Shown: positions 1 through 18,665, numbered from the stretch's first letter. The stretch is 28,544 nucleotides of DNA from an uncultured Flavobacteriales bacterium (GCA_964455985.1 CAYWDY010000001.1:6889-35432); one strand, 5' to 3'. Made by a program: numbers and translations. Notes: generated by a model not told the origin, from the sequence alone.

Positions 1-393
1 CTCATGAAAAACGATCTCTTTCCGTTCTTGGGAAGAACGACGGCGGGTAACCGATTTGATTCGGGCTATCAGCTCCGACATGTGAAACGGCTTAGTGACG
101 TAATCGTCAGCTCCGATATTCAGTCCTAAAAGCCTGTCATCTAAAGAATTACGGGCGGATATAATGACGATTCCTGTCGTGTGTTCCTTTTGTTGCATCT
201 CCTCAATGACCCGAAATCCGCTGCCGTCGGGGAGCCCGATATCCAACAAAATGCAGTCGAATTCCTTCTCTTGAATCGCCGCCAAGGCCTGACTGACATT
301 CTCTGCGGATGTGCAGGTTATTCCAATACCGGAAAGATATTGCTGAATGGAATTGAGCAATTCCTGCTCATCCTCTACGATCAGTACATTCAT
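1..393 (-). CDS. OmpR/PhoB-family response regulator, N-terminal receiver domain (partial, runs off the left edge)
   Basis: Not in the ORF track. Manual translation from ATG at 393 gives MNVLIVEDEQELL...CILLDIGLPDGSGF...IIISARNSLDDRLLGLNIGADDYVTKPFHMSELIARIKSVTRR. It has the acidic pocket, the phosphoacceptor Asp, the S/T-A switch, the GADDY..KPF motif and the ELIARIK..RR linker typical of the OmpR family. The frame is open to position 1. Confidence 0.93.
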   Translation of the reverse strand, partial: MNVLIVEDEQELLNSIQQYLSGIGITCTSAENVSQALAAIQEKEFDCILLDIGLPDGSGFRVIEEMQQKEHTTGIVIISARNSLDDRLLGLNIGADDYVTKPFHMSELIARIKSVTRRRSSQERKEIVFHE

Positions 394-475
394 GGGGCCA
401 ACTTTACACGATAAAAGTCAATGATTCATCGAAAATAGACAATCCTTGAGAATAAGTCCTCGCCATTTTGAATGA

Positions 476-496
476 GTTCATCGCCGGTTCAGAATT
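476..496 (+). promoter_or_regulatory. Direct-repeat box 1, putative response-regulator binding site
   Basis: GTTCATCGCCGGTTCAGAATT, with GTTCA half-sites at 476 and 487 (11-bp period). It matches box 2 at 18/21 positions. Confidence 0.6.
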
Positions 497-540
497 GTAA
501 CGTCTACGTAGTTGGAGGAGCCTATCATGATAGTAGTCAG

Positions 541-561
541 GTTCATCGCTCCTTCAGAATT
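541..561 (+). promoter_or_regulatory. Direct-repeat box 2, putative response-regulator binding site
   Basis: GTTCATCGCTCCTTCAGAATT, with half-sites at 541 and 552. It ends 17 nt upstream of a -7-like TACATTCG (579-586) that has no clear -33 TTTG. Confidence 0.6.
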
Positions 562-622
562 ACTCGGAATAAATGAGATACATTCGCATTCCTAGAAAAC
601 CATATTATCCTATTTCCCAATC

Positions 623-1468
623 ATGAAAAAACAACTACTTGTTTCCGTATTAGCTGCAGGCCTTTTCGTAGGTCTCACAAGCGAAATCCTGAGCGATAAC
701 GGTAAAGCCGGCGCCACCGGTTCTCCCGGTGAGGTCGATTGCACCGATTGCCACAACTCCTACGCCTTGAACAGCGGCGGAGGCAGTATTGCACTGAATA
801 CCGGAACCACGAACAACCAATACACTCCCGGTGTAACCTATCAGATGACGTTCACCGTCAGCTTTTCCGGAAGAAACCTCTTTGGATTGGGCGTAGAAGC
901 CCTGAACAGCTCGAATAACAACGCTGGAACTTTTGTCATCACGGACGCTGCTTCCACCCGTACCAAAACAGCACTCATCGGAACCGTATCGCGCATCAGC
1001 GTGGTCCATCAGTTCAACGGCGGTGCGAGTGCAAACTCCAAGGTGTTTTCCTTCAGCTGGACCGCACCGGCAGCCGGAACGGGTAATGTCACTTTTTACT
1101 ACTGCGGTCTAGCCGCGAATGCTAACGGCAGCGAAAGCGGAGATTACGTGTACCGTGGTAGCACCGTGCTGACGGAGATGAATACTTCTGGCGTCGAGGA
1201 GGCATACAGCAACATCGACTTCTCCGTATTCCCTACACTCATTCAAGACCAAGCCACCATTCGCGTGACTCAGGTAACATCCGGTCCAATGTCCGTTCAA
1301 CTCTTCGATTTGACCGGCCGCCAGGTTCGTTCTGAATCGTTAGACGTGATCGCTGGAGACAGCCGTGAAATCCGCTGGGAAGGCCTTTCATCCCTGAGCA
1401 AAGGAACTTATCTGGTTAATATCCTCAACGGAAACGCCACGGAAGTCAAGCGCATCGTCATCCAATAA
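623..1468 (+). CDS. Secreted Reeler-like (choice-of-anchor V type) protein with a CxxCH heme-c motif and a T9SS type A C-terminal domain
   Basis: N-terminal signal-like segment; GATGSPGE-x-DCTDCH; Reeler-like beta-sandwich (YTPGVTY, GLGVEAL, FSWTAP.AGTGNVTFY..GLAAN.NG..SGD); C-terminal VFPT...VQLFDLTGRQV...LSKGTYLVNI...KRIVIQ. Confidence 0.85.
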   Translation: MKKQLLVSVLAAGLFVGLTSEILSDNGKAGATGSPGEVDCTDCHNSYALNSGGGSIALNTGTTNNQYTPGVTYQMTFTVSFSGRNLFGLGVEALNSSNNNAGTFVITDAASTRTKTALIGTVSRISVVHQFNGGASANSKVFSFSWTAPAAGTGNVTFYYCGLAANANGSESGDYVYRGSTVLTEMNTSGVEEAYSNIDFSVFPTLIQDQATIRVTQVTSGPMSVQLFDLTGRQVRSESLDVIAGDSREIRWEGLSSLSKGTYLVNILNGNATEVKRIVIQ

Positions 1469-1485
1469 TCGAAAAACACTCAACG

Positions 1486-1509
1486 AGCGACCTCCGGGTC
1501 GCTTTTTTT
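1486..1509 (+). terminator. Rho-independent terminator inside the operon
   Basis: AGCGACC-TCCG-GGTCGCT stem-loop followed by a T run that ends at 1509, immediately before the ATG at 1510. Confidence 0.75.
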
Positions 1510-1869
1510 ATGGCCATGAAATCGTCACTTTTCTCTCTGCTGATTGCATCTCTCGTATTCGTCGGATGCCATACGGATCCTGATTTGTCGGCGGTTCCTG
1601 AAGTCAGTTTCTCCAACGACATCCAGCTGATCCTGGGATCCAATTGCACCATGAGCGGCTGTCACGATGATGGCCAAAGCCATAGTGGCGGTGATGATGA
1701 CGAAGATGAGGCTCGTTCCCTGACCACGTATGACGATGTGATGGACTACGGCGACATCGTGGCTGGAAACTCCCGTCGGAGCAAATTATACCGTTGCATC
1801 ACGAACCGGGATCAACTGATGCCACCATCGGGCCCGATGGCTACCAAAGACATCCACTTACTCCCATGA
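1510..1869 (+). CDS. Lipoprotein cytochrome c-like protein (Planctomycete cytochrome C-like domain, CX4CH), apparently C-terminally short
   Basis: Lipobox LVFVG-C; VSFSNDIQLILGSNCTMSGCH; LTTYDDVM; G.IVAGNS..SKLY; distal MPP Met ligand motif; no final W..QG helix. Confidence 0.72.
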   Translation: MAMKSSLFSLLIASLVFVGCHTDPDLSAVPEVSFSNDIQLILGSNCTMSGCHDDGQSHSGGDDDEDEARSLTTYDDVMDYGDIVAGNSRRSKLYRCITNRDQLMPPSGPMATKDIHLLP

Positions 1870-2309
1870 AAAAAATACTCTTCTTCGCTTCGCTGCTGTC
1901 GATTTTTGCGATAAGCGGTTGCTACGACGACAATATTGAAGAGCTGAATGCCGGCAACGGAATCCAAGCCGGATGCGACACCCTCGACAGTTCCGGAACA
2001 GCAGCCCGAACAATCCTGTTCTCCGGTGATGTGCTTCCGATTTTCAATTCAACGTGCGGAACAAACAATGCCGCCTGTCACGATGCCACCAACGCCATTG
2101 ATTTGGGAGGTAACGGCAGTCTTGCAGACTATACGGAATCCATCGCCACGATCGATGACCGTGGCGAACTCGATTTCATGCAACGAATCACCCACGATCC
2201 GGCTATCGCCAGTTCCAAATGGATGCCCAAAGGAGTGTCTACCAAAATGGGAGACTGTGATATCGCCAAAATCAGACTTTGGTTTGAACAAGGAAGACCA
2301 AACAACTAA
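1866..2309 (+). CDS. Lipoprotein cytochrome c-like protein (CX6CH)
   Basis: Start revised from 1794 to ATG 1866, which overlaps the upstream TGA (ATGA) and gives MKKILFF...ISG-C lipobox. Contains FSGDVLPIFNSTCGTNNAACH, the MPK Met motif and the terminal IAKIRLWFEQGRPNN helix. Confidence 0.8.
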   Translation: MKKILFFASLLSIFAISGCYDDNIEELNAGNGIQAGCDTLDSSGTAARTILFSGDVLPIFNSTCGTNNAACHDATNAIDLGGNGSLADYTESIATIDDRGELDFMQRITHDPAIASSKWMPKGVSTKMGDCDIAKIRLWFEQGRPNN

Positions 2310-2314
2310 TTGTT

Positions 2315-3214
2315 ATGAAGCTCAGAATACTATATCTCCTGCTCCTGTGCACCAGCACCGTGTTCGCCCAGGATCTCCTCAGTGGCCTCGAAACCGGTAA
2401 TGAAACCAAAGATTTTTCCCGTGCGACCTTCAAGTCCACACGACTGATCAACTTCCAAACCATTGAGGTGGTTGGCCCGAAGACGTTAGACTTCCGTATC
2501 TCCCACCGTTTCGGAACCTTGAATCAAGGAGCCTATGATGCTTGGGGTATTGATGGTCCAGCAAACATTCGTCTCGGACTCGACTACAGTTACGAGGGCC
2601 GCTTTATGTTCGGTTTCGGCCGTAGTTCGTTGGACAAAATGGTTGATGGCTATCTGAAGTACCGTTTACTCCGTCAGACTACGGACAACAGCATGCCACT
2701 CAGTGTCACCTTATTCACGAGCGCCTATCGTAACGGCCTCCGCGCGGGAGCCGGCTTCGATAAAAACGCTCCGGACTACGACCGCTATTCATATGTAAAT
2801 CAAATCATCATCGGCCGAAAATTCAGTCCGTCGTTTTCCTTCCAGCTAGCGCCATTCATGGTGCATTATAACCTGGTCGACAAAATCACCGACAAGAACG
2901 ACGTGTACGGCGTAGCCTTCGCCACCCGATTGAAATTCACCAAACGTAGTGCTGTCACTGTGGAGTATGCCTGGCGTTACGATAACGATTATTCGACCGA
3001 CGTCACGTACTATAACAGCTTCAGTATCGGCTATGAATTGGAAACCGGAGGACACGTCTTCCAGGTTCATCTGACCAACTCATTCGGTATCGCCGACAAC
3101 CAGTTTCTCGCCCGCACCACGGACAGCTGGAGCAACAATGGCATACACCTCGGCTTCAACATTTGCCGCTTCTTTACCATACCTGCAGGCGGCGGAGAGA
3201 AATCCGGTTGGTAA
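2315..3214 (+). CDS. DUF5777-family outer-membrane beta-barrel protein
   Basis: Sec signal (TVFA-Q); family-type motifs FKSTRLIN, LDFRISHRFG, GIDGPANIRLGLDY, ETGGHVFQVHLTNS; alternating aromatic/hydrophobic beta-strands. Confidence 0.82.
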   Translation: MKLRILYLLLLCTSTVFAQDLLSGLETGNETKDFSRATFKSTRLINFQTIEVVGPKTLDFRISHRFGTLNQGAYDAWGIDGPANIRLGLDYSYEGRFMFGFGRSSLDKMVDGYLKYRLLRQTTDNSMPLSVTLFTSAYRNGLRAGAGFDKNAPDYDRYSYVNQIIIGRKFSPSFSFQLAPFMVHYNLVDKITDKNDVYGVAFATRLKFTKRSAVTVEYAWRYDNDYSTDVTYYNSFSIGYELETGGHVFQVHLTNSFGIADNQFLARTTDSWSNNGIHLGFNICRFFTIPAGGGEKSGW

Positions 3215-3234
3215 ATACTACGATATATCGCTAT

Positions 3235-3270
3235 AACAAAAGCCGCCCTTTTAGAGGCGGCTTTTTTGTT
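3235..3270. terminator. Bidirectional rho-independent terminator
   Basis: AACAAA-AGCCGCC-(8 nt)-GGCGGCT-TTTTTGTT between the convergent DUF5777 and ACMSD genes, with T tracts on both strands. Confidence 0.85.
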
Positions 3271-3333: not shown

Positions 3334-4347
3334 TCAGCTACGATGGAATCGCCCAGCATCCAATCCGAGCCATTCCAAGGCAGTTCCTGACAGCAACCGT
3401 TCTTTAAGTACATCGTCATAGGGCATTTCTTTAATCAACTTGCCCGGTGATAATTCGCCTAATGGAAAAGGATAATCCGTGCCAAGCGCGATGCGTTCTG
3501 GCCCCATGAACTTCACGAGGTAATCCAACATCACCGGATCATGAACCAAGGAGTCGAGATAGAATTGCTTCAGGTACTTGCGCGGATTTTCCGGGTTGTC
3601 CACGGCCACCAGGTCGGGACGGACATGAAATCCATGTTCGATACGACCGAAGGTAGCCGGAAAGGATCCACCGCCGTGGGCAAAGGCGACGCGCAGCGAA
3701 GGCAGACGCTCGAATATTCCACCAAAAATCATGGAGCAAATCGCCAGAGAGGTTTCAGCAGGCATACCCACTAACCAAGGCAACCAATACTTATTCATCT
3801 TCTCTTTCCCCATCATATCCCAGGGATGTACAAAGATGGCGGCCCCCAACTCAGCAGCGGCTTCAAAGAAGGGGAACAGAGCCGGCTCATTCAGGTTCCA
3901 ATCGTTCACATGGGAACCGATTTGTACACCACGCAAGCCGATCTTCATGCATCGCTCCAACTCCCGGATGGCCAAGGCTGGATCCTGAAGCGGAACTGTT
4001 CCCAACCCGACAAAGCGGTTCGGATAACGATCGACGATTCCAGCGATATGGTCATTCAGATAAACGGCTACTTCCAACGCATCCTTCGCATTTGCCCAAT
4101 AGCTGAACATGACCGGTATGGTGGAAAGCACTTGAACATGCACACCGTGATGATCGCATTCCTTTTGCCGGGTATCGGCATCCCAGCAGTTGTCCTGTAT
4201 CTCACGGAAGAATTTTCCATCAATCATCATGCGCGCACAACAAGGCTTGTGATGATCTAAAGAAACAAACCCTCCGTAGCCGAATTTTGACTTGAAGTCA
4301 GGCAGTTTCTCCGGAAGGATGTGCGTATGGATATCAATTACCAGCAT
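3334..4347 (-). CDS. nbaD: 2-amino-3-carboxymuconate-6-semialdehyde decarboxylase (ACMSD, amidohydrolase_2 family)
   Basis: Start revised to ATG 4347 ([12 protein letters not shown]). HxH metal motif, [26 protein letters not shown]...GRIEHG and GTDYPF; same operon as 3-HAO. Confidence 0.92.
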
Positions 4348-6349
4348 TGTAGCGTTTGATCTTTTTGACTTCTTCCGCTTTGGCGAAATACGTCTGTGCG
4401 GTCGATTCATCGCCCAAGTTGCGGTAGGTCATTCCCATGAGGTAATAGGGCATGGAATAATCCGGATCCTCTTTAATGGAACGCTGAAAGTAGGAGATGG
4501 CTGTTTCGAAATTCATTTTGGCATTCAACAAGTGCCTGTCCCGGTTAGCAGGGTCCTCTGTAGCGGCCCTGCGCTCCGACTCTCCCAGAACTCCGTAAAC
4601 ACTGGCCAGGTTGTTGAATGCATGGGCGTAACGCGGATTGTAACGTACCGCCGTCTCGAAATGCTGACGCGCTTCATCAAAGCGGTTTCTGTCGAAGAGC
4701 AGGGTACCGTAATTGTTATTCGCCACAGCGTCCGAAGCATTGAGCGAAAGAGCTTTTTTAAAATCCGGCTCAGCCGCTTCATAATCCTTCATGGAAAACA
4801 GAATGAAGGCACGACGCTGGAAGGCTTCCGAATAGTCTGGGTAAATCTGAATGGCCGTATCCAGTTGGGCGATGGCTTCCAATCGGTACTGGCGGGCAGT
4901 CAGGGAGTCTTTCGCCTCCGCGATATACTCTTCGGAGGAAATATGATTCGCCAGGTAAAAACGCATGTGAGCGCTTTGCGGCACCTTGCGGATATCGGAT
5001 GTGTACAGTGTGTAATTGTCTTTCCAGTCGGGATTGCGGTTGATAGCCACAGCCGCATATCCTACCGACAACAAAGCGACTATCAACAATGGACGTGCAT
5101 AAGGACGCAGGTAGGCTGACAGGCTTTCCGCCGGATCGGAAGATTCTTCTTTGACCAACAGGCGGTGCACCAGTACCGCCATGGCAATACACCAGCCCAT
5201 GGAAGGTGCGAATAATAGTCGTTCAGCATAACACGTACCGATCATGATCACCACATTCGATACGATGGAAATGGTCAGAAAGAAATACAGGATGGTGAAT
5301 ACCAGCGGATCCTTCGAACGGAATCGTAGGACGGTAAAAATGGCCAGTCCAAGAAATGCAGCCATGGACAATAAAAAGTGCCAGTCACCGACAGGATAAG
5401 GAGGAATGCTGTTGAAGGATCCATCCGAAACCAGCGGATAGGGAACGAAGAGTTTAAAGACGTACGTACCCAGGATGGCGATGGCCGTAGTGCGTTGGGT
5501 CAGGAAATCCGGCAGGGCTGAAATCGGGTTATCTAGCATAGGAATGGCGGACTGCACCGTTCCCAAAATGTTATGTCTGATCATCAAAAACAACAGCGAT
5601 GGAAGCGTCGCCGCCAATACTACCGGCCAGGATTCACGCCAGGATGACTGTCGGAAAAAATAAAGGGTCAATGGTAATACAGCAATCCAGGTGATCGATG
5701 ACTCTTTGGCCAGCATGGCCAGAAAGAACATCGCAGAAAGGGTCACCAAATGAAGCGATCGTTTCTCCTCGATGTACCGGATCGATAGTCGGCAACTAAG
5801 GAGCAAGAAAAGCAACGAGAGTATTTCGTCACGACTTTTGATGTTGGCCACTACTTCCGTATGCAGAGGGTGCACGGCAAACAGCAAAACGGCAATCAGC
5901 GGAACCAGTTTGTTGCCTTTGAATAGGATTGACAAGACTCCGAACATGACCCAGCATAACAACCCATACAAAATGACATTGGTGGCATGTCCAAGTCCGG
6001 GTTGATTGGGCGCTATAGCCCACTCAACGGCAAAGGTGGCTTTCGAAAGCGGTCGGTAAATGCTGTTATCGGCAGCATCCATTCCTGCGCGGTAACTGGT
6101 CTTGAAGATCTCTCCTACCCCGTCGAATCCCTTTCGGGTTATTTTGTTTTCCGGAATAAGCCCCCAATCATCCAGCACGTATTCATAGCCGATGGTGTTC
6201 GCATAGACGAGCATGCCTACCACAGCTACGGCAAAGCCGAGCCATCGGCGGATCTTTCGTTCGGCAGATACGGCGCGCGACTGATTTTTAGCAGAAGGGA
6301 TACTGGCCCGCTGGGCCTGCTTTTCCCTTTTCGTGAGTTTCTTATTCAC
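4334..6349 (-). CDS. TMTC-like GT-C glycosyltransferase (multi-pass membrane domain plus C-terminal TPRs)
   Basis: YVLDD acidic loop after TM1; YRPL; [19 protein letters not shown]; LAKES; [10 protein letters not shown]; RNPDW..N.TLY; then TPR repeats ([39 protein letters not shown]). These are TMTC1-4-family signatures. Confidence 0.8.
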
Positions 6350-6365
6350 TCCGGGATGATTTGAA

Positions 6366-6893
6366 TCACGACAGTTTTTTCGGAGGCTCCATCACATGAC
6401 CGCATTGCTTGCAGGTACGGAGTTCCTTGTTTTCGTAAAAAGCGTTCGTAGCCTCAGCTAATTGGACTACGATATTATCCAAGTCGAAGTATTGCTCATG
6501 CAACATCGAATGACATTGTTCACAAAACCACATCAAGCCGTCTTTCATGCCCGGACGACGTTGGACTTCCATGACCAGCCCGATGGTATTCGGACCACGC
6601 TGCGGCGAATGAGGAACCTTTCCCGGAAGCAAGAATATCTCGCCTTCCTTGATGGGAATATCGACCATCTTGCCGTCTTCGATGATCTTCACCACGATAT
6701 CTCCTTCCAACTGGTAGTAGAACTCTTCCGTCTCGTTAAAATGATAGTCTTTCCGAGAATTCGGTCCACCGACCACCATGACGATGAAATCCTGATCCGG
6801 CTGATAGACGACTTGGTTGCCGATGGGAGGTTTTAAGAGATGACGGTTCTCGTCGATCCACTTCTTAAAGGAGAATGCGCGTTGAATGGACAT
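6366..6893 (-). CDS. nbaC: 3-hydroxyanthranilate 3,4-dioxygenase
   Basis: VGGPNSRKDYH, EEFYYQLEG and PHSPQR cupin Fe(II) ligands; rubredoxin-like CEQC...CKQC second iron site. Confidence 0.96.
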   Translation of the reverse strand: MSIQRAFSFKKWIDENRHLLKPPIGNQVVYQPDQDFIVMVVGGPNSRKDYHFNETEEFYYQLEGDIVVKIIEDGKMVDIPIKEGEIFLLPGKVPHSPQRGPNTIGLVMEVQRRPGMKDGLMWFCEQCHSMLHEQYFDLDNIVVQLAEATNAFYENKELRTCKQCGHVMEPPKKLS

Positions 6894-6899
6894 AGTGGT

Positions 6900-7193
6900 T
6901 TATGATTTATGGCCGTGCCAGATTTCATTGAATCGTTCCTTCATTTCCTGAGCGAATCCTTCCGCCTTTTGACCGGCCTGTCGAGCACGCTCTTCCATCT
7001 TGTCTCTCCATGCGGTCACCTTGGCTTTGGTCGCATCACCGAATTCTCCTCCCTCGGCCATCTTCTCGATTTCCGGGTGAAGGGCGGTGGGAAATTTCGC
7101 TTTCATCCATTCCAGCGTGACGCGGGCCGCTTGCTCCGCCTGTTCCTTGTTCAGGCCGGCGGAACGCTCATAGAGTTCTGTCAAATTCTGCAT
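6900..7193 (-). CDS. Small all-helical hypothetical protein
   Basis: 97-aa ORF located between a good promoter and nbaC (6-nt gap). AGLNKEQAEQAARVTLEWMKAKFP resembles small Bacteroidota helical proteins; charged coiled C-terminus. Confidence 0.75.
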   Translation of the reverse strand: MQNLTELYERSAGLNKEQAEQAARVTLEWMKAKFPTALHPEIEKMAEGGEFGDATKAKVTAWRDKMEERARQAGQKAEGFAQEMKERFNEIWHGHKS

Positions 7194-7201
7194 GGAATTG
7201 C

Positions 7202-7209
7202 TAGCTTTG
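7202..7209 (+). promoter_or_regulatory. Bacteroidota sigma-70 -7 element for the SDR gene
   Basis: Exact TAnnTTTG match (TAGCTTTG), with a near -33 TCTG ending at 7180 (21-nt spacer). Confidence 0.55.
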
Positions 7210-7248
7210 TTCGGAATGAGGGGCCACGAGGTACACCCCGTAACCCTT

Positions 7249-7279
7249 CAAAGTTAACGAAATCACTCCGATACTTCAA
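7249..7279 (-). promoter_or_regulatory. Bacteroidota sigma-70 promoter for the hyp-nbaC-TMTC-ACMSD operon
   Basis: The minus strand reads TTG-N20-TAACTTTG, matching the -33/-7 consensus. Confidence 0.7.
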
Positions 7280-7284
7280 TCACG

Positions 7285-8070
7285 ATGAATCTGGACTTAC
7301 GCGGCAAACGGGCCATCGTGTGCGGTAGCACACAAGGCATTGGAAAGGCCGTGGCCCTTGAACTTGCCCTGTTAGGTGCATCCGTCACACTGATCGCCCG
7401 AAACGAAGAAGCACTACGTTCCACCCGCAGTGAACTATCATCCCTCTTCCAGCAACAGCATGAATACCTGGTAGCGGATTTCTCCCAGCCCAACCTGCTG
7501 CGCCAGGTTATCAGTAATTACTTGCAGGGCAAACCGGCTCATATCCTGGTGAATAATACCGGTGGTCCTCCTTCCGGACCCATCACCGAAGCCGAGGAAT
7601 TGTCTTTCACCTCCGCATTTGAACAGCATCTGATCTGTAATCAGATCTTGGCGAAAGCCGTTTTGCCCGGCATGAAAGAGGCGAGATACGGCCGTATCAT
7701 CAACATCATTTCGACCTCGGTCAAGCAACCGTTGAAAGGGCTTGGTGTATCCAATACGATTCGTTCAGCCGTTGCCAATTGGGCCAAAACGTGGTCACTC
7801 GAAGTGGCGCCTTACGGCATCACGGTGAATAATGTACTGCCTGGAGCCACCAACACGATCCGACTTCAATCGCTGATGGAGAACAAATCCACTAAAACGA
7901 AAAAACCCTTAGAGGCTATCCGACAGGAAATGTTGGAAGAAATTCCGATGAGCCGTTTTGCCGAGCCGAACGAAGTTGCGAATGCCGTTGCGTTCCTGGC
8001 TTCGCCTGCTGCCGCTTACATCACGGGCATCAACTTGCCTGTAGACGGCGGGCGTACTGGAAATCTGTAA
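7285..8070 (+). CDS. SDR-family NAD(P)-dependent oxidoreductase
   Basis: CGSTQGIG Rossmann motif, LVNNTGGP, GRIINIIS, SNTIRSA (catalytic YxxxK replaced by SxxxR), GITVNNVLPG and YITGINLPVDGG. Confidence 0.9.
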   Translation: MNLDLRGKRAIVCGSTQGIGKAVALELALLGASVTLIARNEEALRSTRSELSSLFQQQHEYLVADFSQPNLLRQVISNYLQGKPAHILVNNTGGPPSGPITEAEELSFTSAFEQHLICNQILAKAVLPGMKEARYGRIINIISTSVKQPLKGLGVSNTIRSAVANWAKTWSLEVAPYGITVNNVLPGATNTIRLQSLMENKSTKTKKPLEAIRQEMLEEIPMSRFAEPNEVANAVAFLASPAAAYITGINLPVDGGRTGNL

Positions 8071-8073
8071 GCC

Positions 8074-8385
8074 TTAGAAAATTTTGTAGATGGTGCCGAT
8101 AAGTTGCTCTTCCTTCTCACGGTAAGCGGGCGTATCGACTTCTTTCCCGTTTTTCAAAACAGTAAGTTCAATGCGGGTGACCCCTTCCGATACGCGGTGA
8201 ATCTTCAGGTCCAGCCCTTCGGAAATTCGCATGGGAAGGAACCCGGTTTTCTTGGCCTTGAATTGAAAAACACCTTCCTGATGATCCAACAATTGACTGA
8301 CCAGCTTGAACTTCTTGCGTTCGAACAATCGGTTGATCCGTTCCAAAACCTCGCGGTCGTTTCGGTGCAATAGGGCGGATCTCAT
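8074..8385 (-). CDS. Hypothetical protein (~103 aa, alpha/beta)
   Basis: Start revised to ATG 8385, because the longer GTG start overlaps a promoter-like TTTG-N19-TATATTGG (8404-8434). No recognisable family. Confidence 0.6.
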   Translation of the reverse strand: MRSALLHRNDREVLERINRLFERKKFKLVSQLLDHQEGVFQFKAKKTGFLPMRISEGLDLKIHRVSEGVTRIELTVLKNGKEVDTPAYREKEEQLIGTIYKIF

Positions 8386-8403
8386 GGGGTGTGGGAATGA
8401 AAC

Positions 8404-8434
8404 CCAATATAGCACATTTCTACGTTATTCCAAA
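8404..8434 (-). promoter_or_regulatory. Putative Bacteroidota promoter for 8074..8385
   Basis: Minus strand TTTG-N19-TATATTGG (one mismatch to TAnnTTTG). Confidence 0.45.
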
Positions 8435-8529
8435 TAGTACCTTAGCCGATCCATTGGATGCTTACCGGTAATTCCCCCTAAAAAGAACCATTAACAGTCT
8501 TTTTTCCAAAATTGAAAGCAGGAAAATCC

Positions 8530-9972
8530 ATGATATTCTTAAAAAATCTAATAAATGGCGACTTGGTAGTGCCGGAAAGCGGAGCTTACCTGGACTCCAT
8601 AAACCCCGCGACTGGCGAGGCCTATGCCAAGATTCCGGATTCCGATGAACGCGATGTAGAACGAGCCGTGGCAGCCGCCCGGACAGCCTTCCCCGGATGG
8701 TCAACGATGGCCAAAGAAAAAAGAAGCGCCCTGTTGATGAAGCTCTCCGCCTTAATCGAGCGCGATCTGGATAAATTGGCTTTAGCGGAAACAAACGATC
8801 AAGGGAAACCACTGTGGCTTTCCAAGAGTGTCGATATTCCACGCGCCGTATCCAATTTGCATTTCTATGCCACAGCAGCGCTGCACAACCACACGGCAGC
8901 CCATGCGATGGAACAGACCGCTGTCAATTATACGCTGCGCACTCCTGTAGGCATCGCCGGCTGCATTTCTCCTTGGAATCTCCCACTCTATCTTTTTACC
9001 TGGAAAATAGCTCCAGCACTCGCTGCCGGATGCACGGTAGTAGCCAAGCCTTCAGAGATTACGCCGATGACTGCTTACCTGTTGGGAGAACTGTCCATCG
9101 AAGCAGGACTTCCTCCCGGCGTCTTGAATATCGTTCACGGACTGGGTCCCAAAGTCGGTATGAGTATCGTTTCTCATCCGGATATTCCCGCCATCTCCTT
9201 CACCGGAGGAACAAAGACCGGTGAAACGATTGCCCGTACAGCCGCTCCACTTTTCAAGAAACTGTCGTTGGAATTAGGCGGCAAGAATCCAACCATCATC
9301 TTCAACGATTGTGATTTCGATAAAACCGTTCAGACGGCTGTGCGTTCCGCCTTCTCCAACCAAGGAGAAATTTGCCTCTGCGGCTCACGTCTGCTGATCG
9401 AAAGACCATTGTACGAGAAGTTCAAAGTAGCCTTCGTGAATGAAGTGAAAAAACTGAAGGTGGGTGACCCGCTTGACGAAAAGAGCTGGCTGGGTGCTAT
9501 CGCCTCCAAGCAGCATCACGAAAAAATAATCTCCTACATCGAGTTGGCCAAACAAGAGGGCGGAACATTACTGACCGGAGGAAATGCCGTTCATCCCGAA
9601 GGCCGTTGCTCCAACGGTTATTTCATCGAACCCACCGTCTTTGAAGGGCTGCCCTACGACTGTCGCACCAACCAAGAGGAAATTTTCGGCCCGGTCGTGA
9701 CACTGATGCCGTTTGATTCGGAAGAAGAGGCCCTGATGATGGCCAATTCTACCCGCTACGGACTCGCTTGTTCGCTCTGGACTTCCGATCTGAGTCGCAC
9801 CCACCGGATGGCATCCCGGTTGGAATTCGGTATTGTTTGGGTGAACTGCTGGTTGCTTCGCGACCTGCGTACGCCTTTCGGGGGAATGAAAGGAAGCGGT
9901 GTTGGTCGGGAAGGCGGGTTTGAAGCACTCGACTTCTTCACCGAAGAACGTAATGTTTGCATCCGTTATTAA
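8530..9972 (+). CDS. Aldehyde dehydrogenase, 2-aminomuconate/2-hydroxymuconate-6-semialdehyde dehydrogenase type (ALDH8A1/NbaE-like)
   Basis: Start revised from TTG 8512 to ATG 8530. ISPWNLPLYL, FTGGT, LELGGKNP (catalytic Glu), NQGEICLCGSR (catalytic Cys), EEIFGPV and WLLRDLRTPFGGMK.SGVGREGG; adjacent to 3-HAO/ACMSD. Confidence 0.9.
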   Translation: MIFLKNLINGDLVVPESGAYLDSINPATGEAYAKIPDSDERDVERAVAAARTAFPGWSTMAKEKRSALLMKLSALIERDLDKLALAETNDQGKPLWLSKSVDIPRAVSNLHFYATAALHNHTAAHAMEQTAVNYTLRTPVGIAGCISPWNLPLYLFTWKIAPALAAGCTVVAKPSEITPMTAYLLGELSIEAGLPPGVLNIVHGLGPKVGMSIVSHPDIPAISFTGGTKTGETIARTAAPLFKKLSLELGGKNPTIIFNDCDFDKTVQTAVRSAFSNQGEICLCGSRLLIERPLYEKFKVAFVNEVKKLKVGDPLDEKSWLGAIASKQHHEKIISYIELAKQEGGTLLTGGNAVHPEGRCSNGYFIEPTVFEGLPYDCRTNQEEIFGPVVTLMPFDSEEEALMMANSTRYGLACSLWTSDLSRTHRMASRLEFGIVWVNCWLLRDLRTPFGGMKGSGVGREGGFEALDFFTEERNVCIRY

Positions 9973-10908: not shown

Positions 10909-11508
10909 GTGAATCAATCTACTGCTCCTCTTTACGGTCTTGTGCTCGCCGGTGGTGAAAGCCGTCGCATGGGCAAGGACAAGGGTTTGATTCAATACTA
11001 CGATTTCCCCCAACGCGAATGGGCAGCCAAGCTGCTCCTCCCCTTCTGTCAACAGGTTTTTATTTCGGTACATGAACAGGGCGTAGAATCCGGATTCCCT
11101 TTACTGCAAGACGATAGCTCATACGGGCGGATCGGACCCATGGCTGCGCTTCACCGCGCAATGACCAGTCACCCCGAGGCGGCTTGGATGGTTACCGCCT
11201 GCGATCAACCTTTTCTTACGGCAGAATTATTCCGAAAATTGACCGAGCATCGAAATCAGGAACATGACATAATCTGTTTCCGGACAACGGATCCTGACAT
11301 TATAAATCCTTTTCCTGCTATCTATGAACCCGTAATTCGAGAAAACGTCGAGCATGCCATGAAGGCCTCGTCGTATTCCTTGATCGAAATGATCCGAAGC
11401 GCCAAGGCTTTGTACCTCTTTATCGAGGATCCGATTGAGCTAAGAAGCATCGACAATTTCGAAGAATCGGAAATCCTCTTGCAGCAGCTGCGAAAAAACA
11501 GGCGCTGA
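10909..11508 (+). CDS. mobA: Molybdenum cofactor guanylyltransferase (MobA-like NTP transferase)
   Basis: GLVLAGGESRRMGKDK, GPMA.L..A and VTACDQPFL motifs; directly upstream of fdhD and a bis-MGD enzyme; GTG start. Confidence 0.85.
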   Translation: MNQSTAPLYGLVLAGGESRRMGKDKGLIQYYDFPQREWAAKLLLPFCQQVFISVHEQGVESGFPLLQDDSSYGRIGPMAALHRAMTSHPEAAWMVTACDQPFLTAELFRKLTEHRNQEHDIICFRTTDPDIINPFPAIYEPVIRENVEHAMKASSYSLIEMIRSAKALYLFIEDPIELRSIDNFEESEILLQQLRKNRR

Positions 11509-11541
11509 TTCCGTACTAACCAGTAACTTTACAGGAGCTCC

Positions 11542-12390
11542 ATGGCTGCTTCTGTTTATCCCATACAAACCCGACGTTACGTCCATGCACGTTGGGAAAC
11601 CGCTCCCGACCTGTTGGCGGAAGAGGAGCCGTTGGAAATCCGTATTGAATATGGGCCGCTGAACGACCGACGAAACAAAAGCCTCGCCGTCACCATGCGC
11701 ACACCCGGCCATGATTTCGAGCTTGCGCTGGGATTTCTGTATTCTGAAGGACTGATACGCACGCCCGCTGATATTCATTCCATCCGATATTGTTCCGATA
11801 CTCGGACCGAAGAAGAAAAAGAAAATATTGTCCGCGTATTCCTCGCTCCTGAATGTGAGGTGAATCTCTCCTCGACGGAACGGAATTTCTACATGACATC
11901 CAGCTGCGGTTTATGCGGAAAAGCCAGCCTGGAGGCATTGCAAAAACAATGTCCCGAAACTCCATTTCCGGAAAATGATTGGCATGTTTCTCCGGAATGG
12001 CTTACCACCTTGCCGGAATCGGCTCGCCAAGCCCAGTCCGTCTTCGATCATACCGGTGGACTTCATGCTTGTGCCCTCTTTCAACCGGAAGGAAAACTGA
12101 TCCTGATCCGTGAAGACATCGGTCGGCACAATGCGCTGGACAAGATCATCGGAGCCTCCTTTATGTCTCCGGATATAGACCTGAAGCGCAGTGTCCTTTT
12201 CCTCAGCGGCAGAGCCGGATTCGAACTGATACAGAAAGCCGCCATGACAGGAATCCGGTTTGTCGCAGCGGTTGGAGCACCATCCTCGTTGGCAGCCCGC
12301 CTTGCCCAAGCTATGGGTATCACTCTGGTCGGTTTTTTACGCGACCAACGATTCAATATCTATTCCGGAGAGAGCCGAATATCATCATGA
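11542..12390 (+). CDS. fdhD: Formate dehydrogenase accessory sulfurtransferase
   Basis: EEPLEIR, TMRTPGHDFELALGFL.SEG, SSCGLCGK, TGGLHA, REDIGRHNALDK.IG, SGRAGFEL.QKA and AVGAPSSLA. Confidence 0.96.
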   Translation: MAASVYPIQTRRYVHARWETAPDLLAEEEPLEIRIEYGPLNDRRNKSLAVTMRTPGHDFELALGFLYSEGLIRTPADIHSIRYCSDTRTEEEKENIVRVFLAPECEVNLSSTERNFYMTSSCGLCGKASLEALQKQCPETPFPENDWHVSPEWLTTLPESARQAQSVFDHTGGLHACALFQPEGKLILIREDIGRHNALDKIIGASFMSPDIDLKRSVLFLSGRAGFELIQKAAMTGIRFVAAVGAPSSLAARLAQAMGITLVGFLRDQRFNIYSGESRISS

Positions 12391-14693
12391 GCGACCACCA
12401 CCAAAAACCGAACGCCGAAAACCCGGAGACGTTTACGGGTCTTAAGATCGGTACCCCAAAAGAGGCGGCTGCCGGAATTCCCGGCGTAGTCGCTGCGGTA
12501 GAACATGTATTCCGTGAAATGAGCGTAGGCCGAGGGGTGAAAGCGCTTTTGAAGTTAAATCAAAAAGACGGCTACGATTGTCCGGGATGCGCTTGGCCCG
12601 ATCCGGATGATGACCGCTCCACGTTGGCAGAGTATTGCGAGAACGGTGCTAAAGCCATTGCAGAAGAAGCTACTTCCAAACGGCTCGACAGAGAATTTTT
12701 CGCTCGGCATAGTGTCGCCGAACTGGCAGAGCTGAGCGACTACGAGATCGGTAAAAAGGGACGTATCGCCGAGCCGATGTATCTGCCCAAAGGCAGTTCG
12801 CACTACCAACCGATATCGTGGGATGATGCTTTCCAGAAAATCGCCCATTCGCTGAACGCATTGGCAAGTCCGGATGAAGCCATCTTCTACACCTCGGGCA
12901 GGACCAGCAACGAAGCCGCCTTTCTTTACCAGCTACTCGTACGTCAGTTCGGCACCAACAACCTGCCGGATTGCTCCAACATGTGTCATGAGTCGAGCGG
13001 TACGGCCTTGAACGAGATGATGGGTATCGGGAAAGGATCTGTCACGCTTGAAGATTTCTACCAAGCAGAAGCCATCATCATCTTAGGACAAAATCCAGGT
13101 ACTAATCATCCGCGTATGCTTAGCGCCTTGAAGAAGGCGAAAGAGAATGGTGCGGTTATCCTTTCTGTGAATCCGTTACCGGAGACAGGACTCATGGGAT
13201 TCTTGGATCCGCAGTCTGCCAAAGGGATCTTGGGGATAAAAGCACGACTCACCGATCTCTTCTTGCAGGTTAAGATCAACGGTGACATGGCTCTTCTCAA
13301 AGCCATCAACCGCACGTTGCTGGAAGAAGATGAAAAACAACCCGGCACTGTTCTGGACCGGGAATTCCTTGAAAAACGTACGCAAGATTTTGACGCCTAC
13401 CGCGACCATTTGAAAGCACTGGACCTGCCCACCTTACTGGCACAGTCCGGTATACCGGAGGAAAAATTCCGAACGGCTGTCGAACTGTTGCGCAACCGGA
13501 AGAAAATCATCGCCTGCTGGGCCATGGGTCTGACGCAACACAAGAACGCCGTTGACACGATCAAGGAAGTGGTCAACTTGCTCTTGCTCAAAGGCAGTAT
13601 CGGTAAACCGGGAGCTGGGACATGTCCGGTGCGTGGACACAGCAACGTTCAAGGTGATCGCACTATGGGCATCTACGAAAAACCGACTCCTGCTTTTCTG
13701 GATCGTCTGGAAAGAACCATGGGATTCACGGTGCCACGCAAATATGGCTACGATACCGTGGAAGCGATACACGCGATGCATAGCGGCAAAGCACGTGTCT
13801 TTATCGCGATGGGCGGTAATTTTCTCTCTGCCACACCGGATACCCGTTACACGGCGGAAGCACTGCAGAATTGTTCACTGACCGTACAAGTGTCAACCAA
13901 GCTGAACCGCAGCCATCTTATAACCGGAGAAGAGGCGCTGATTCTGCCGACTTACGGACGAAGTGATAAGGATGAGATCGACGGCGAAATACAATTCGTG
14001 AGTTGCGAGAATTCCATGGGTGTCGTCCAGTGGTCTAAAGGCAGCCTGAATCCAGTCTCGACCTACCTACTCAGCGAGCCTGTCATCGTCGCTCGACTGG
14101 CCACGGCCCTCTTTGGAGATGCGTCATCGATCGACTGGAAAAAATACCAGAGACATTATGATCGCATCCGGGATGATATTGAAAAAGCGATTCCCGGATT
14201 CGAAGACTACAACCGTCGTGTGCGTGAACCGGGAGGATTTTATTTACCCAACTCGGCTCGTGACGGGCGATTCAATACGTCTAGCGGAAGCATACGATTC
14301 CATATCGCACCGCTTAGCCAAGCGGAATTGCAGGATGGAGAGTACATGATGATGACCATCCGTAGCCACGACCAATTCAATACGACCATCTACGGACTCA
14401 ACGACCGTTACCGCGGTGTACTGAACGAACGACGTGTCATTTTCATGAATGAGAACGATGTGATTCGTGAAGGCCTAAAGCAGGGCGATCTGGTGGATCT
14501 GTTCAATCATCACGAGAATCGGGAACGGGTGGCACACCGTTTCATCGTCATCCCCTACAGCATTCCTGAACGTTGTACGGCTACTTATTTTCCGGAAACG
14601 AATGTGCTCGTGCCGATCAACAGCGTAGCGGAAAAAAGCAACACCCCCACCTCTAAATCGGTAGCCATTCGGATTCGTAAGTCTGCGGATTAA
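12387..14693 (+). CDS. FdhF/YdeP-family molybdopterin oxidoreductase
   Basis: NQKDGYDCPGCAWPD, EYCENGAKA, FYTSGRTSNEAAFLYQL, TNNLPDCSNMCHE, PVRGHSNVQGDRTMG and TIRSHDQFNTTIYG; ATGA overlap with fdhD. Confidence 0.93.
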   Translation: MSDHHQKPNAENPETFTGLKIGTPKEAAAGIPGVVAAVEHVFREMSVGRGVKALLKLNQKDGYDCPGCAWPDPDDDRSTLAEYCENGAKAIAEEATSKRLDREFFARHSVAELAELSDYEIGKKGRIAEPMYLPKGSSHYQPISWDDAFQKIAHSLNALASPDEAIFYTSGRTSNEAAFLYQLLVRQFGTNNLPDCSNMCHESSGTALNEMMGIGKGSVTLEDFYQAEAIIILGQNPGTNHPRMLSALKKAKENGAVILSVNPLPETGLMGFLDPQSAKGILGIKARLTDLFLQVKINGDMALLKAINRTLLEEDEKQPGTVLDREFLEKRTQDFDAYRDHLKALDLPTLLAQSGIPEEKFRTAVELLRNRKKIIACWAMGLTQHKNAVDTIKEVVNLLLLKGSIGKPGAGTCPVRGHSNVQGDRTMGIYEKPTPAFLDRLERTMGFTVPRKYGYDTVEAIHAMHSGKARVFIAMGGNFLSATPDTRYTAEALQNCSLTVQVSTKLNRSHLITGEEALILPTYGRSDKDEIDGEIQFVSCENSMGVVQWSKGSLNPVSTYLLSEPVIVARLATALFGDASSIDWKKYQRHYDRIRDDIEKAIPGFEDYNRRVREPGGFYLPNSARDGRFNTSSGSIRFHIAPLSQAELQDGEYMMMTIRSHDQFNTTIYGLNDRYRGVLNERRVIFMNENDVIREGLKQGDLVDLFNHHENRERVAHRFIVIPYSIPERCTATYFPETNVLVPINSVAEKSNTPTSKSVAIRIRKSAD

Positions 14694-16007: not shown

Positions 16008-18482
16008 TCAATGGACAACGAGGAATCGTCGTGTGGCGACGAATCCGTCGGCTTGCAAACGAAGAAGGTAAACTCCTTCCGGCAAGGTAGCTGCTGACTG
16101 AGGCAGTTTCATCGTGTGCAATCCGTCAGGGAGCTCCGTTTCCTGTGACATCCCGGAGATGACGTGGCCAGAGATATCGAATACTTCAAGACGAACGTTG
16201 GAGGCACGGTCCAAGTTGAACTGGATGGTAGCATCATCGCGCAGCGGATTCGGATACAACGCCAGATCGAAAATCGGACTGGATGGATACAAAGACTTGG
16301 CCAGGTAGGATGAGGATGTGTTCGACGGAGGGGGAGGAGCAACGCCCACTTTCTGGATGGTGAATTGATCCCAAGTAGATCCAGTGTTGGTGAGGAATTT
16401 ACAATCCAAACGGTCACCGGCCACGTCAATCACCAAAGAACCATACACAGTATTCGTGCTCGTGTACATGGCATTGTGAGGCCAACCGGAGGAGGTAGCA
16501 CTCAATTGTCCGGATACGCCGCAAACCGTATAAACGGTACCGTAGAAATTAGGAGAGTTCTTCGTGTAGGAATTGGGAGAGATGCCGGAACCGGAATTCA
16601 CGGCCATGGTGGAACTGTTGAAGGTGGACTCCAGTCCATAATGTCCACGGATTAGATACGAACGCTCGTAGGCATGACTGTGTCCGGAAAGCACCAAGTC
16701 CACTTTGTAATTCTCCAGTATAGGGATAATGTTGGTTCTCATTTCCACCAGTTCGGTCGAGGAATCGGAATCGTGTGAGCCTTTGGAATACGGAGGATGG
16801 TGGAAATAGACAACGGTCCAGCGTTGGGTGTTGGCTGCGAGATCCGCCGCCAACCAGGTGGCTTGAGCGCCGTTCACCGCACGGAAGGGAGCATCCGTAG
16901 ACTCGAGGCAAACAAAATGGATGTTGGCGTAGTTGAAAGAGTAGTACGCTTCCGTGTTGCTGGCTCGTCCTCCCACCTCGCCGGCTTTCGGCAACGTGAA
17001 CGCATCGAAGTACGCTCCCGTCTGATTGGTGGCGTTGGCAGAATACAAATCGTGATTGCCTGTTGCCGGCCATACGACGAATTTGCGGAACTGGAATGGA
17101 TACATGTCGAATACGTTCGTCTGATATTCCGTATCCAAACCGTTCTGGTAGGCATTATCGCCGAGCCATAGCCAAATATTAGTCGGTGTGTTTCTCGAAT
17201 AATTCATGTACGCATCGCGCACTTGGCGCTGGGCGGTCGTCCCCAATCCGAAATCTCCAATGGCCCAAATGCGGACCGATCCCGTTGATCCGACCGCCGG
17301 ATGGGTATAGAAATAGTATCCCGTATCTCCTGCGACAGTGGCCGTTGATGTTCCAATGGAGTAGAAGTATTTTGTGTTCGGAGTCAGGTTGGTTATTTGA
17401 ACGATGTGCTCGGTAGTGGATGTAGCATTCGTAGCGCTGTAATTCAAATTAGAGGAGGAGGTGCCGAAGCGTACCGTGGAATTCGTAGCATTGTTGGTGC
17501 GCCAGCGGACATAGATGGAGGTAGTATTAGCTTGATTAAGATAAGGTCCCCGGGTGACCGAAAGCGATGAGGAGAGGGTAGTAAAAATTCCGCTGCCAGA
17601 CCAAGCGGCCGTACCGGATGAACAAACGGTCTGGACTTGGAACTCGTAGGTCGTAACTGGAATCAGTCCGGTAAGATTGGCAGAATTGGTGGTCGATGAT
17701 ACCGAGACCCAATTGCCCGAGTAACGAACGGCATACCTTACATTGTATCTGATAGCTCCGGAAACGGAACGCCAGCCTACCGTGACTGAGTTGGAAGTCC
17801 GGTTGCTGTTGGTGAAATAGGTCACATCCGCTGCTCCGCAGTTGCTGGAAAGCGTGGTGAATTGAAGCAACGTACTGTAGGACTGAGTAGTAGTGCCACA
17901 AATACAACGGACTGCCCATTCATACGTGGTGTTCGAGGAAAGTCCGGTCAGGGTATAGGTGCTCAGTGTGCCAGCGATCTTAATCCACACATAGTTGGTT
18001 GTTCCTACCACGTTGTATCGAATCATGAAGGTGTCAGCCCGGATGTAGGAGTTCCAGGAAAGGGTTGCCCCGGTGGATGTGATGTTAGTCGTGACATTCA
18101 GATTGGGTGTCACGCAGGATACGTTTTGGGCCAGCGTGGTGAACCCGACGGGATTCGTTTGGTAGGCGCCAGAAGTTCCAGTCAGACACCAAGTCCTTAC
18201 CTGCCAATAATATGTGGTGTTAGGTTTTAATCCCGTCAAGGTCGTGTTGGTGGCCGTGGCGGAAGAGACGGTCTTGTAGATAAAATTGGCCGTGCCGCTT
18301 TCGTAGTACCTGACTAGAAAACTATCGGCCGGACTGCTAATGGTCCAGTTGAGCCGGGCACCCGTGGAAGTAATTTGCGTGGTAGTCAGATTCGCTGGAA
18401 TGATACACTGTGCATTCATTCCTTCGGTTAAAACCAATCCAAGACCAAAAATGAAAATAAACCGGATCAAAAAAGTTTTCAT
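16008..18482 (-). CDS. Secreted 3x fibronectin-III plus purple-acid-phosphatase-type metallophosphoesterase with a T9SS C-terminal domain
   Basis: Start probably ATG 18482 (MKTFLIRF..., signal). Three Fn3 repeats; RGPYL PAP N-domain; GDFG, GDNAY, GNHD, FHHPPY and SGHSHAYER motifs; LYPNP...LPEGVYLLRL C-terminal domain. Confidence 0.9.
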   Translation of the reverse strand: MKTFLIRFIFIFGLGLVLTEGMNAQCIIPANLTTTQITSTGARLNWTISSPADSFLVRYYESGTANFIYKTVSSATATNTTLTGLKPNTTYYWQVRTWCLTGTSGAYQTNPVGFTTLAQNVSCVTPNLNVTTNITSTGATLSWNSYIRADTFMIRYNVVGTTNYVWIKIAGTLSTYTLTGLSSNTTYEWAVRCICGTTTQSYSTLLQFTTLSSNCGAADVTYFTNSNRTSNSVTVGWRSVSGAIRYNVRYAVRYSGNWVSVSSTTNSANLTGLIPVTTYEFQVQTVCSSGTAAWSGSGIFTTLSSSLSVTRGPYLNQANTTSIYVRWRTNNATNSTVRFGTSSSNLNYSATNATSTTEHIVQITNLTPNTKYFYSIGTSTATVAGDTGYYFYTHPAVGSTGSVRIWAIGDFGLGTTAQRQVRDAYMNYSRNTPTNIWLWLGDNAYQNGLDTEYQTNVFDMYPFQFRKFVVWPATGNHDLYSANATNQTGAYFDAFTLPKAGEVGGRASNTEAYYSFNYANIHFVCLESTDAPFRAVNGAQATWLAADLAANTQRWTVVYFHHPPYSKGSHDSDSSTELVEMRTNIIPILENYKVDLVLSGHSHAYERSYLIRGHYGLESTFNSSTMAVNSGSGISPNSYTKNSPNFYGTVYTVCGVSGQLSATSSGWPHNAMYTSTNTVYGSLVIDVAGDRLDCKFLTNTGSTWDQFTIQKVGVAPPPPSNTSSSYLAKSLYPSSPIFDLALYPNPLRDDATIQFNLDRASNVRLEVFDISGHVISGMSQETELPDGLHTMKLPQSAATLPEGVYLLRLQADGFVATRRFLVVH
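17575..18410 (-). repeat. Three intragenic Fn3 domain repeats
   Basis: Repeated T.IT.T.A.L.W...Y.VRY...L.PNTTY.W.VR..C...FTTL units in the translation; boundaries are approximate. Confidence 0.8.
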
Positions 18483-18627
18483 GCTCTTCGCTTCGTTCAT
18501 GCTTCTTTCTATATGGCAATTACGAAAATCTTTGGGTAATCACAATGAAAATTGAGGCTTATTCCCGATTTGGTACGATTATTTAACTAAAAACAATTCT
18601 GAAGTGGGATGGTTTCTGCCCAAAAAG

Positions 18628-18665
18628 AAAAACACTCCGCAGGAAGCGCCTACGGAGTGTTTTTT
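18628..18665 (-). terminator. Rho-independent terminator of the CotH-kinase gene
   Basis: The minus strand reads CACTCCGTAGG-CGCTT-CCTGCGGAGTG-TTTTTCTTTTT. The internal G-U pair forms only on the minus-strand transcript. Confidence 0.8.

Follow-up and report, generated by a model that had tools for sequence, protein, structure and literature searches.

How might a small outer-membrane barrel and a set of one-heme cytochromes work together at the surface of a bacterium? The question is raised by four co-oriented genes (A-D, at 623-3214) in a stretch of DNA from an uncultured Flavobacteriales bacterium. The window analyzed here is that whole stretch, 28,544 nucleotides (nt) long (G000:C1:6889-35432), and its source is an 81%-complete, freshwater metagenome-assembled genome. 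A previous, sequence-only reading had described a protein with a CxxCH motif secreted by the type IX secretion system (T9SS), two lipoproteins with heme-c-like motifs, a DUF5777 barrel, a divergent OmpR-type regulator, repeated boxes and a closing terminator, and had interpreted them as a two-component-regulated system for surface electron transfer, metal reduction or redox sensing, comparable to the MtrAB/OmcB conduits. We found all of these elements where that reading had placed them (Table 1). As an interpretation it holds in part: the genes belong to a conserved envelope gene set of heme-c-type proteins and a barrel, but neither the MtrAB/OmcB structural model nor two-component control as a general property survived the analysis. 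Judging from sequence comparisons and structural models, the gene set is best read as what is probably an outer-membrane electron-transfer module. With slightly better than even confidence, we regard it as the lineage-specific form of a widespread, unstudied redox module of the Bacteroidota outer membrane, the core of which is a small DUF5777 barrel beside lipid-anchored, single-heme cytochromes c.

DUF5777 was present in 167 of the 401 genomes of the phylum that were sampled, representing 90 of 180 genera, whereas none of the 87 genomes of one large family yielded it. When 14.7 kb around each of 40 distant DUF5777 copies was inspected, a lipoprotein-type cytochrome with a heme motif adjoined the barrel gene at 34 loci, usually ~950 nt upstream, and the association of barrel and cytochrome genes noted in the window thus extends across the Bacteroidota. 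Immediately 5' of the barrel gene, 37 of the 40 loci had a gene for YceI, homologous to this genome's own YceI (checked against Pfam), while the same position at the other three was occupied by a Rieske lipoprotein (L044), a T9SS-sorted protein of the plastocyanin/azurin type (L054) or a diheme cytochrome (L053). Since small redox carriers swap for one another beside the barrel, this substitution provides the strongest contextual argument for a role in electron transfer. Indeed, the barrel-cytochrome pair, which occurs in about 4 of every 10 sampled genomes of the phylum and always amid heme c, Rieske, blue copper or YceI proteins, suggests an outer-membrane redox function that has gone unrecognized; DUF5777 was not mentioned in the literature searched, and a search on YceI, cytochrome c, Bacteroidetes and beta-barrel likewise gave no relevant result.

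Among close relatives, two loci (L033 and L035) have the regulator-kinase pair followed by A-B-C-D and a third (L036) has one cytochrome gene plus D. Since the flanking tryptophan-catabolism genes are also syntenic, these three loci are not independent. Compared to the usual Bacteroidota module of cytochrome, YceI and DUF5777 genes, the cluster has the same barrel family, the same family of cytochrome lipoproteins and the same gene order. However, it contains no YceI or oligonucleotide-binding (OB)-fold gene, its two cytochromes are single-domain proteins with stretched motifs, its first gene is of the choice-of-anchor V family, and a sensor pair is encoded divergently. The module-type YceI of this genome is encoded on a different contig (C15; L080 277-2513), after a FixH-like frame and together with genes for a tRNA_anti-like OB-fold protein, DoxX and DsbD_2. 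Since the YceI and OB-fold genes sit there, the usual module is split over two loci in this genome.

The products of genes B and C, 119 and 147 amino acids (aa) in length, each have a lipobox. In an alignment of 36 B/C-type proteins, taken from the close relatives and 27 distant loci, the sole invariant columns were the lipid Cys, the two heme Cys, the His and a Met-Pro pair, in agreement with the earlier description of two lipoproteins that each have a heme-c-like motif and a distal Met. The spacer between the two heme Cys varies within one column of this alignment (CX2, CX4, CX5 and CX6), with B having CX4CH and C having CX6CH. The domain family, which comprises 48,728 representatives at E ≤0.001 and often occurs in tandem, shows the same variation: its 150 best representatives contained 288 CX2CH, 164 CX4CH, 5 CX5CH, 3 CX6CH and 2 CX3CH motifs. 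By these counts, the CX4CH of B is a regular variant of the family and the CX6CH of C a rare but recurrent one. CX4CH has been counted as a heme c site (PMC5566968), and dedicated lyases are required by some atypical heme sites (PMC6976685). The PSCyt1 model (PF07635) matched B at 16.7 bits, below its cut-off of 22, and did not match C, although it is carried by distant, two-domain homologues.

When the B/C family profile was compared to the PDB, it matched PccH (E = 7e-6), FoxE (E = 2.5e-5), the heme domain of the hydrazine synthase alpha subunit (E = 7.2e-5) and many cytochromes c6. An exhaustive VIA structural search with an AlphaFold model of C (predicted local distance difference test score, pLDDT, 80) ranked FoxE (Z 7.3) first and PccH (Z 6.1) second, ahead of a third match at 3.2; a Foldseek search of the PDB with the same model gave insignificant matches only, the best being PccH (E = 5). 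Taken together, the predicted fold of C and the family profile place the B/C lipoproteins among the class I cytochromes, in the neighborhood of PccH and FoxE. Two further features set C apart. Cys37 and Cys131 covary, both being present in 17 sequences and absent in 18, with one mixed case. In addition, the C subfamily has a conserved C-Y-Y-D-K/N-x-E-E after the lipid Cys, an acidic stretch that is weaker in B. Lipoproteins of Bacteroidota are exported to the cell surface by signals such as SDDFE, SDDDD and K-(D/E)2 (PMC5080379), and the likeness of the acidic stretch to these signals suggests that C may be surface exposed.

In this assembly, B lacks its last 13 codons, which correspond to a conserved C-terminal helix. 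Relative to L033 and L035 there is a gap of 39 nt, encoding the C-terminal helix, the stop codon and a short spacer, and as a consequence B overlaps C. In contigs from the metagenome runs X1 and X7, 54 different nt are found at 1853/1857, and the contig of X1 is otherwise identical upstream. Since these contigs hold a longer allele, the short B represents either a strain variant or an assembly artefact or collapse.

The product of gene D (299 aa) matches PF19089 (DUF5777) with an E of 3e-87 and 292 bits (cut-off 23.1) over model positions 1-247, and its predicted structure (pLDDT 90) has 12 strands, confirming the family and the type of barrel that had been proposed for it. Foldseek matched D to outer-membrane barrels only, and the best coverage was obtained with the 12- to 14-stranded NanC (template-modeling score 0.67 by target), FapF and OmpG. 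Residues invariant in D include Gln19, His64, His247, Arg285 and a T-G-G-H turn, and the invariant His and Arg may be part of an outward binding patch. By an estimate from strand parity and hydrophobicity, several invariant residues (His64, His247, Arg285 and nearby Phe residues) are on the hydrophobic face, on strands 11, 12 and 1; we draw no conclusion from this estimate.

The gene A product (281 aa) belongs to the choice-of-anchor V family (NF041895, 92.1 bits; cut-off 42) and ends in a T9SS type A tail (TIGR04183, 32.8 bits, cut-off 23; PF18962, 33 bits, cut-off 27). Its neighbors according to a protein language model are Bacteroidota clusters that combine Reeler (PF02014) with Por_Secre_tail. 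Cys40, Cys43 and His44 were invariant across 17 homologues with identities down to 40%, which bears out the description of A as a T9SS-secreted protein with a CxxCH, although a few homologues in the alignment have CX3CH or CX4CH in its place. A conserved D-N-G-K-A-G-x-T-G-S-P-G-E, just after the signal peptide of the A family, precedes the motif. The A-family profile matched the PDB in the T9SS tail only, leaving the domain with the heme motif without a match. If A binds heme, the type IX system would have an all-beta cytochrome among its cargo. The translocon for such export is present in the host, in the form of SprA (SprA_N, E = 4e-156, in a frame of 2455 aa). Choice-of-anchor V genes occurred in 99 of the 401 sampled genomes; in five of them (G071, G099, G167, G251 and G267), representing four families, such a gene was <4 kb from DUF5777, while in most genomes that have both the two are unlinked. 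The genome also encodes two longer paralogues of A (G000:C8 1857-3857 and C144 4912-6273), which have a near-identical D-N-G-K-A-G...CxxCH head and no adjoining cytochrome genes.

The sequence-only reading would have been refuted by a host lacking any cytochrome c maturation system, which is not the case here. In this genome, CcmC-, CcmE- and CcmF/NrfE-like genes are found together on contig C33, and ResB was not found in what is an incomplete genome. As a test of heme binding across the phylum, the presence of cytochrome c assembly genes was uninformative, since 396 of 401 genomes have them. The CX4CH and CX6CH cytochromes provide a test of how far the Ccm machinery can stretch.

The divergent regulator is completed outside the window, where the rest of its gene and that of a 427-aa kinase are located (G000:C1 5331-7281); its orthologue in L033 is a full OmpR/PhoB-type regulator that matches no specific equivalog. 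The kinase (G000:C1 5331-6614) scores 433 bits with the PorY-family model NF052314 (cut-off 350) and is the only one in the genome above this cut-off, the next best kinase reaching 249. Copper or heavy-metal sensing was rejected as its closest family (cztS/silS/copS, 79 bits; cut-off 293). PorY is an orphan kinase whose partner regulator, PorX, lacks a DNA-binding domain. The kinase resembles its counterpart in the PorXY system of Porphyromonas gingivalis in that it passes the PorY-family model over its full length and sits beside a gene for T9SS cargo, but it differs in sharing an operon with an ordinary DNA-binding regulator of the OmpR/PhoB type rather than the PorX type. Two-component regulation, as proposed by the sequence-only reading, is therefore probably a feature of this lineage and not a general one, since an orthologous regulator-kinase pair accompanied the module at 1 of the 40 distant loci (L042). 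Separately, L037, L038, L041 and L045 each encode, at a similar distance from the barrel gene (3-4.5 kb), a response regulator of ~250-270 aa whose receiver domain is only weakly matched and which may be another linked regulator.

Between the regulator gene and gene A are the repeated boxes, two elements of 21 nt that each consist of two (G/C)TTCA half-sites 11 nt apart. The pattern matched twice in the window, both times in this spacer. None of 100 shuffles reached two matches, and the genome has 10 sites (including these 2), figures obtained with a pattern built from the very sites in question. In L033 the proximal box is conserved in part and aligns with TTCATCG-N4-TTCAGAATTA. From their sequence and position, we infer that the boxes are binding sites of the regulator; no convincing box was found when the region before the unlinked YceI/OB-fold genes on C15 was searched for a shared operator. 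Having its own sensor pair and operator, the cluster offers a handle for finding the inducing signal.

The hairpin between A and B (-14.5 kcal/mol, z -4.0) has counterparts of different sequence at the corresponding position in both L033 and L035, that of L035 being without a clean T-run, and is probably an internal terminator or attenuator. Since this terminator-like hairpin lies between A and B, genes A-D may not form one simple transcript. The earlier view of a four-gene block that ends in a terminator is correct as to its end, where a hairpin plus T-run was found at 3241-3268, to which the conserved hairpin after A is to be added. The cluster sequence was found in DNA runs only, and in none of the RNA runs searched to test the internal terminator.

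A scheme consistent with these results can be proposed for the module. B and C would be made as lipoproteins, with heme added in the periplasm by Ccm despite the stretched CX4CH and CX6CH sites, and C might then be flipped to the cell surface by way of its acidic stretch. A would fold in the periplasm, probably gain heme c at its N-terminal CxxCH, and leave through the type IX system to become anchored at the surface. D would take part in the docking or assembly of the lipoproteins, or let a small redox-active molecule through a narrow opening, rather than form a sheath round a heme wire. Single electrons would hop among the one-heme carriers at the outer membrane. The PorY-family kinase and the OmpR-type regulator would probably activate the promoter through the two tandem-repeat boxes, and the hairpin after A would probably result in a higher ratio of A to B-C-D.

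A number of observations weigh against an electron-transfer module of this kind. A 12-stranded barrel gives no obvious electron path across the membrane, and an inner-membrane electron donor is not encoded nearby. Heme binding by A, B and C is putative and deduced from motifs, the CX6CH of C makes up <1% of the motifs in the 150 best family representatives, and the Z values obtained with C are middling, for the same two proteins picked by the sequence profile. Also to be counted are the C-terminal helix missing from B in this assembly, the single CcmF-type lyase seen in this incomplete genome, the near restriction of the sensor pair to close relatives, and the absence of YceI, so common at the distant loci (37 of 40), from this cluster and from L033, L035 and L036.

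The alternatives differ mainly in what they ask of the barrel. In classical porin-cytochrome conduits, e.g., MtrCAB of Shewanella, PioAB/MtoAB, and OmbB-OmaB-OmcB of Geobacter (reviewed in PMC5566968), a cytochrome inside the barrel links the periplasm electrically to the cell surface so that metals can be reduced. Like these systems, the cluster has a barrel gene adjacent to c-type cytochrome genes and conserved with them, and A could be the counterpart of their additional, surface-exposed heme protein; the parallel makes an outer-membrane role in electron transfer plausible. However, the barrels of the conduits have ≥20 strands around a deca- or octaheme protein, whereas D, with 12 strands and 299 aa, is the size of NanC, FapF or OmpG and would be unable to enclose a cytochrome of 100 residues. 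Moreover, A, B and C have one motif each, the cluster encodes no multiheme protein, the monoheme cytochromes (~100 residues) are too small to span the membrane, two of them are lipoproteins and one is T9SS cargo, and no sequence relation to the conduits was found. The comparison with MtrAB/OmcB therefore fails as a structural model, and we consider a classical conduit very improbable. A trans-outer-membrane pathway could conceivably be built of one-heme parts only, with B facing the periplasm, C flipped to the surface, A as a T9SS-anchored, all-beta heme c protein, and D holding a cofactor or guiding a lipid-soluble carrier through its invariant His. We regard this version as speculative and rather unlikely. 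If it is true, extracellular iron, humics or surface enzymes would be partners with which aerobic, freshwater Bacteroidota can exchange electrons. Members of the phylum have a major share in degrading the organic matter of water and soil, and we know of no extracellular electron-transfer system described for them. Alternatively, the barrel might be a dedicated partner for the display or anchoring of a cytochrome lipoprotein at the surface, following the logic of Slam and its lipoproteins or of SusC-SusD, with the chemistry being wholly extracellular, such as FoxE-like oxidation of Fe(II) or Cbp2D-like reduction of an enzyme. The near-obligate pairing of barrel and lipoprotein genes, the acidic, export-signal-like motif conserved in the C subfamily, FoxE as the best structural match of C, T9SS sorting of the secreted partners (choice-of-anchor V and cupredoxin), and the reduction of lytic polysaccharide monooxygenases by CjX183 of Cbp2D (PMC8981238) all fit such a role. 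Nevertheless, surface exposure is a prediction, electrons would still have to be supplied at the surface, D has neither a Slam-like periplasmic domain nor a SusC-like plug, and the acidic stretch of B is the weaker one; we consider display a credible but minority possibility.

Other readings assign the cytochromes a different task or deny them heme altogether. The cytochromes, together with YceI elsewhere, could supply electrons with which superoxide or lipid radicals are scavenged in the outer membrane, as has been proposed for YceI-cytochrome b561 pairs (yceI-yceJ). YceI is the commonest neighbor of the barrel (37 of 40 loci), DoxX and DsbD_2 genes accompany this genome's own YceI, and the family in which DUF5777 was not found has cytochrome c assembly genes, which may fit a link to an aerobic lifestyle. 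Yet the cluster itself contains neither YceI nor cytochrome b561, and envelope protection seems unlikely as its function. Variable spacing of the Cys residues (CX2-CX6 in B/C, CX2-CX4 in A) would also suit disulfide loops or metal sites in structural or metal-handling envelope proteins, and A, being all-beta, does not have a classical cytochrome fold. Such a non-heme role is nonetheless improbable given that the His and distal Met-Pro are invariant in B/C, that fold and profile match class I cytochromes, that the neighbors which replace one another beside the barrel are bona fide redox carriers, and that CX4CH is a known heme c site (PMC5566968). Finally, the barrel could act as a channel in the acquisition of iron or heme, with the lipoproteins capturing or processing either one under the control of the sensor pair. 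The resemblance to FoxE, an Fe(II) oxidoreductase, and the origin of the organism from freshwater and sediment would be compatible with acquisition, but the cluster has no TonB-dependent receptor, ABC transporter or heme oxygenase, covalently bound heme cannot be passed on, and the kinase does not belong to any known iron-sensing type, all of which makes this role quite improbable.

The nearest characterized proteins, PccH of Geobacter sulfurreducens (PDB 4rlr) and FoxE of Rhodobacter ferrooxidans SW2 (PDB 5mab), share with the B/C family the class I cytochrome fold and a Met as distal ligand. Each of the two serves to exchange electrons with donors outside the cell (PMC13591261, PMC10654088), and FoxE has an extra disulfide that holds its C-terminus (PMC10654088), to which the covarying Cys37-Cys131 pair of C is comparable. 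However, PccH and FoxE are soluble, periplasmic CxxCH proteins that have no barrel partner, whereas B and C are lipid-anchored and have CX4CH and CX6CH sites, respectively, and identities amount to 15-19%. Cyc2, the fused monoheme cytochrome-porin of iron oxidizers, also has a single heme motif after the signal peptide and an outer-membrane barrel, but it is one polypeptide with a larger barrel, whereas the parts are encoded by separate genes here; this comparison was made by description only. A precedent for extracellular, one-heme carriers with YceI is provided by Cbp2D and Cbp2E of Cellvibrio japonicus, which are secreted and combine a small c-type cytochrome domain with YceI-like domains. 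A surface enzyme is reduced by the cytochrome domain of Cbp2D (PMC8981238), and growth on cellulose depends on Cbp2D as well as Cbp2E (PMC12542752). They differ from the module in coming from a gammaproteobacterium, in being multidomain proteins that bind carbohydrates, and in involving no barrel, lipoproteins or T9SS, and YceI is not part of the present cluster.

Table 1. Positions of the cluster genes and associated elements in the window, and of two genes that take the place of YceI before the barrel gene at distant loci (positions within those loci).
Feature	Position	Strand	Description
Response regulator gene, 5' part	1..393	-	OmpR/PhoB family; Response_reg E 4.7e-29
Distal operator-like box	476..496	+	Two GTTCA half-sites, 11 nt apart
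Proximal operator-like box	541..561	+	GTTCA, 6 nt, CTTCA, then GAATT; ~60 nt 5' of gene A start
Gene A	623..1468	+	Signal peptide; N-terminal CxxCH (Cys40, Cys43, His44), putative heme site; choice-of-anchor V / Reeler-like beta domain; T9SS type A C-terminal sorting domain
Terminator-like hairpin between A and B	1485..1511	+	8 bp, GC-rich, then T7
Gene B	1510..1869	+	Lipoprotein, predicted monoheme cytochrome c; CX4CH, Met-Pro; C-terminally truncated in this assembly
Gene C	1866..2309	+	Lipoprotein, predicted monoheme cytochrome c; CX6CH, Met120-Pro121; extra Cys37-Cys131 pair; acidic C-Y-D-D-N-I-E-E after lipid Cys
Gene D	2315..3214	+	Outer-membrane beta-barrel of the DUF5777 family, 12 strands; signal peptidase I site, mature protein starting at invariant Gln19
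Cluster terminator hairpin and T-run	3241..3268		Between convergent gene D and amidohydrolase gene; z -3.3
Rieske [2Fe-2S] lipoprotein gene before barrel	L044 7850-8281	-	
T9SS-sorted plastocyanin/azurin-type copper protein gene before barrel	L054 6276-6848	+	

The remainder of the window contains several other groups of genes. Adjoining the cluster, at 3334-9972, are catabolic genes of the tryptophan/kynurenine type, encoding an Amidohydro_2 protein, 3-hydroxyanthranilate dioxygenase, an aldehyde dehydrogenase and a short-chain dehydrogenase/reductase. They are interrupted by a gene for a 671-aa tetratricopeptide-repeat protein, the versions of which in relatives also match PMT_2. Genes for a MobA-like protein, FdhD/NarQ and a 768-aa molybdopterin oxidoreductase follow in a row at 10909-14693. 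Three further proteins with T9SS tails, i.e., a purple acid phosphatase (with fn3), a 1662-aa CotH/lamin-tail/immunoglobulin-like protein and an esterase, are encoded within 16008-23673 and 26446-28008. An Fe/Mn superoxide dismutase (23813-24568) has an N-terminal extension of ~55 residues and is possibly an exported form.

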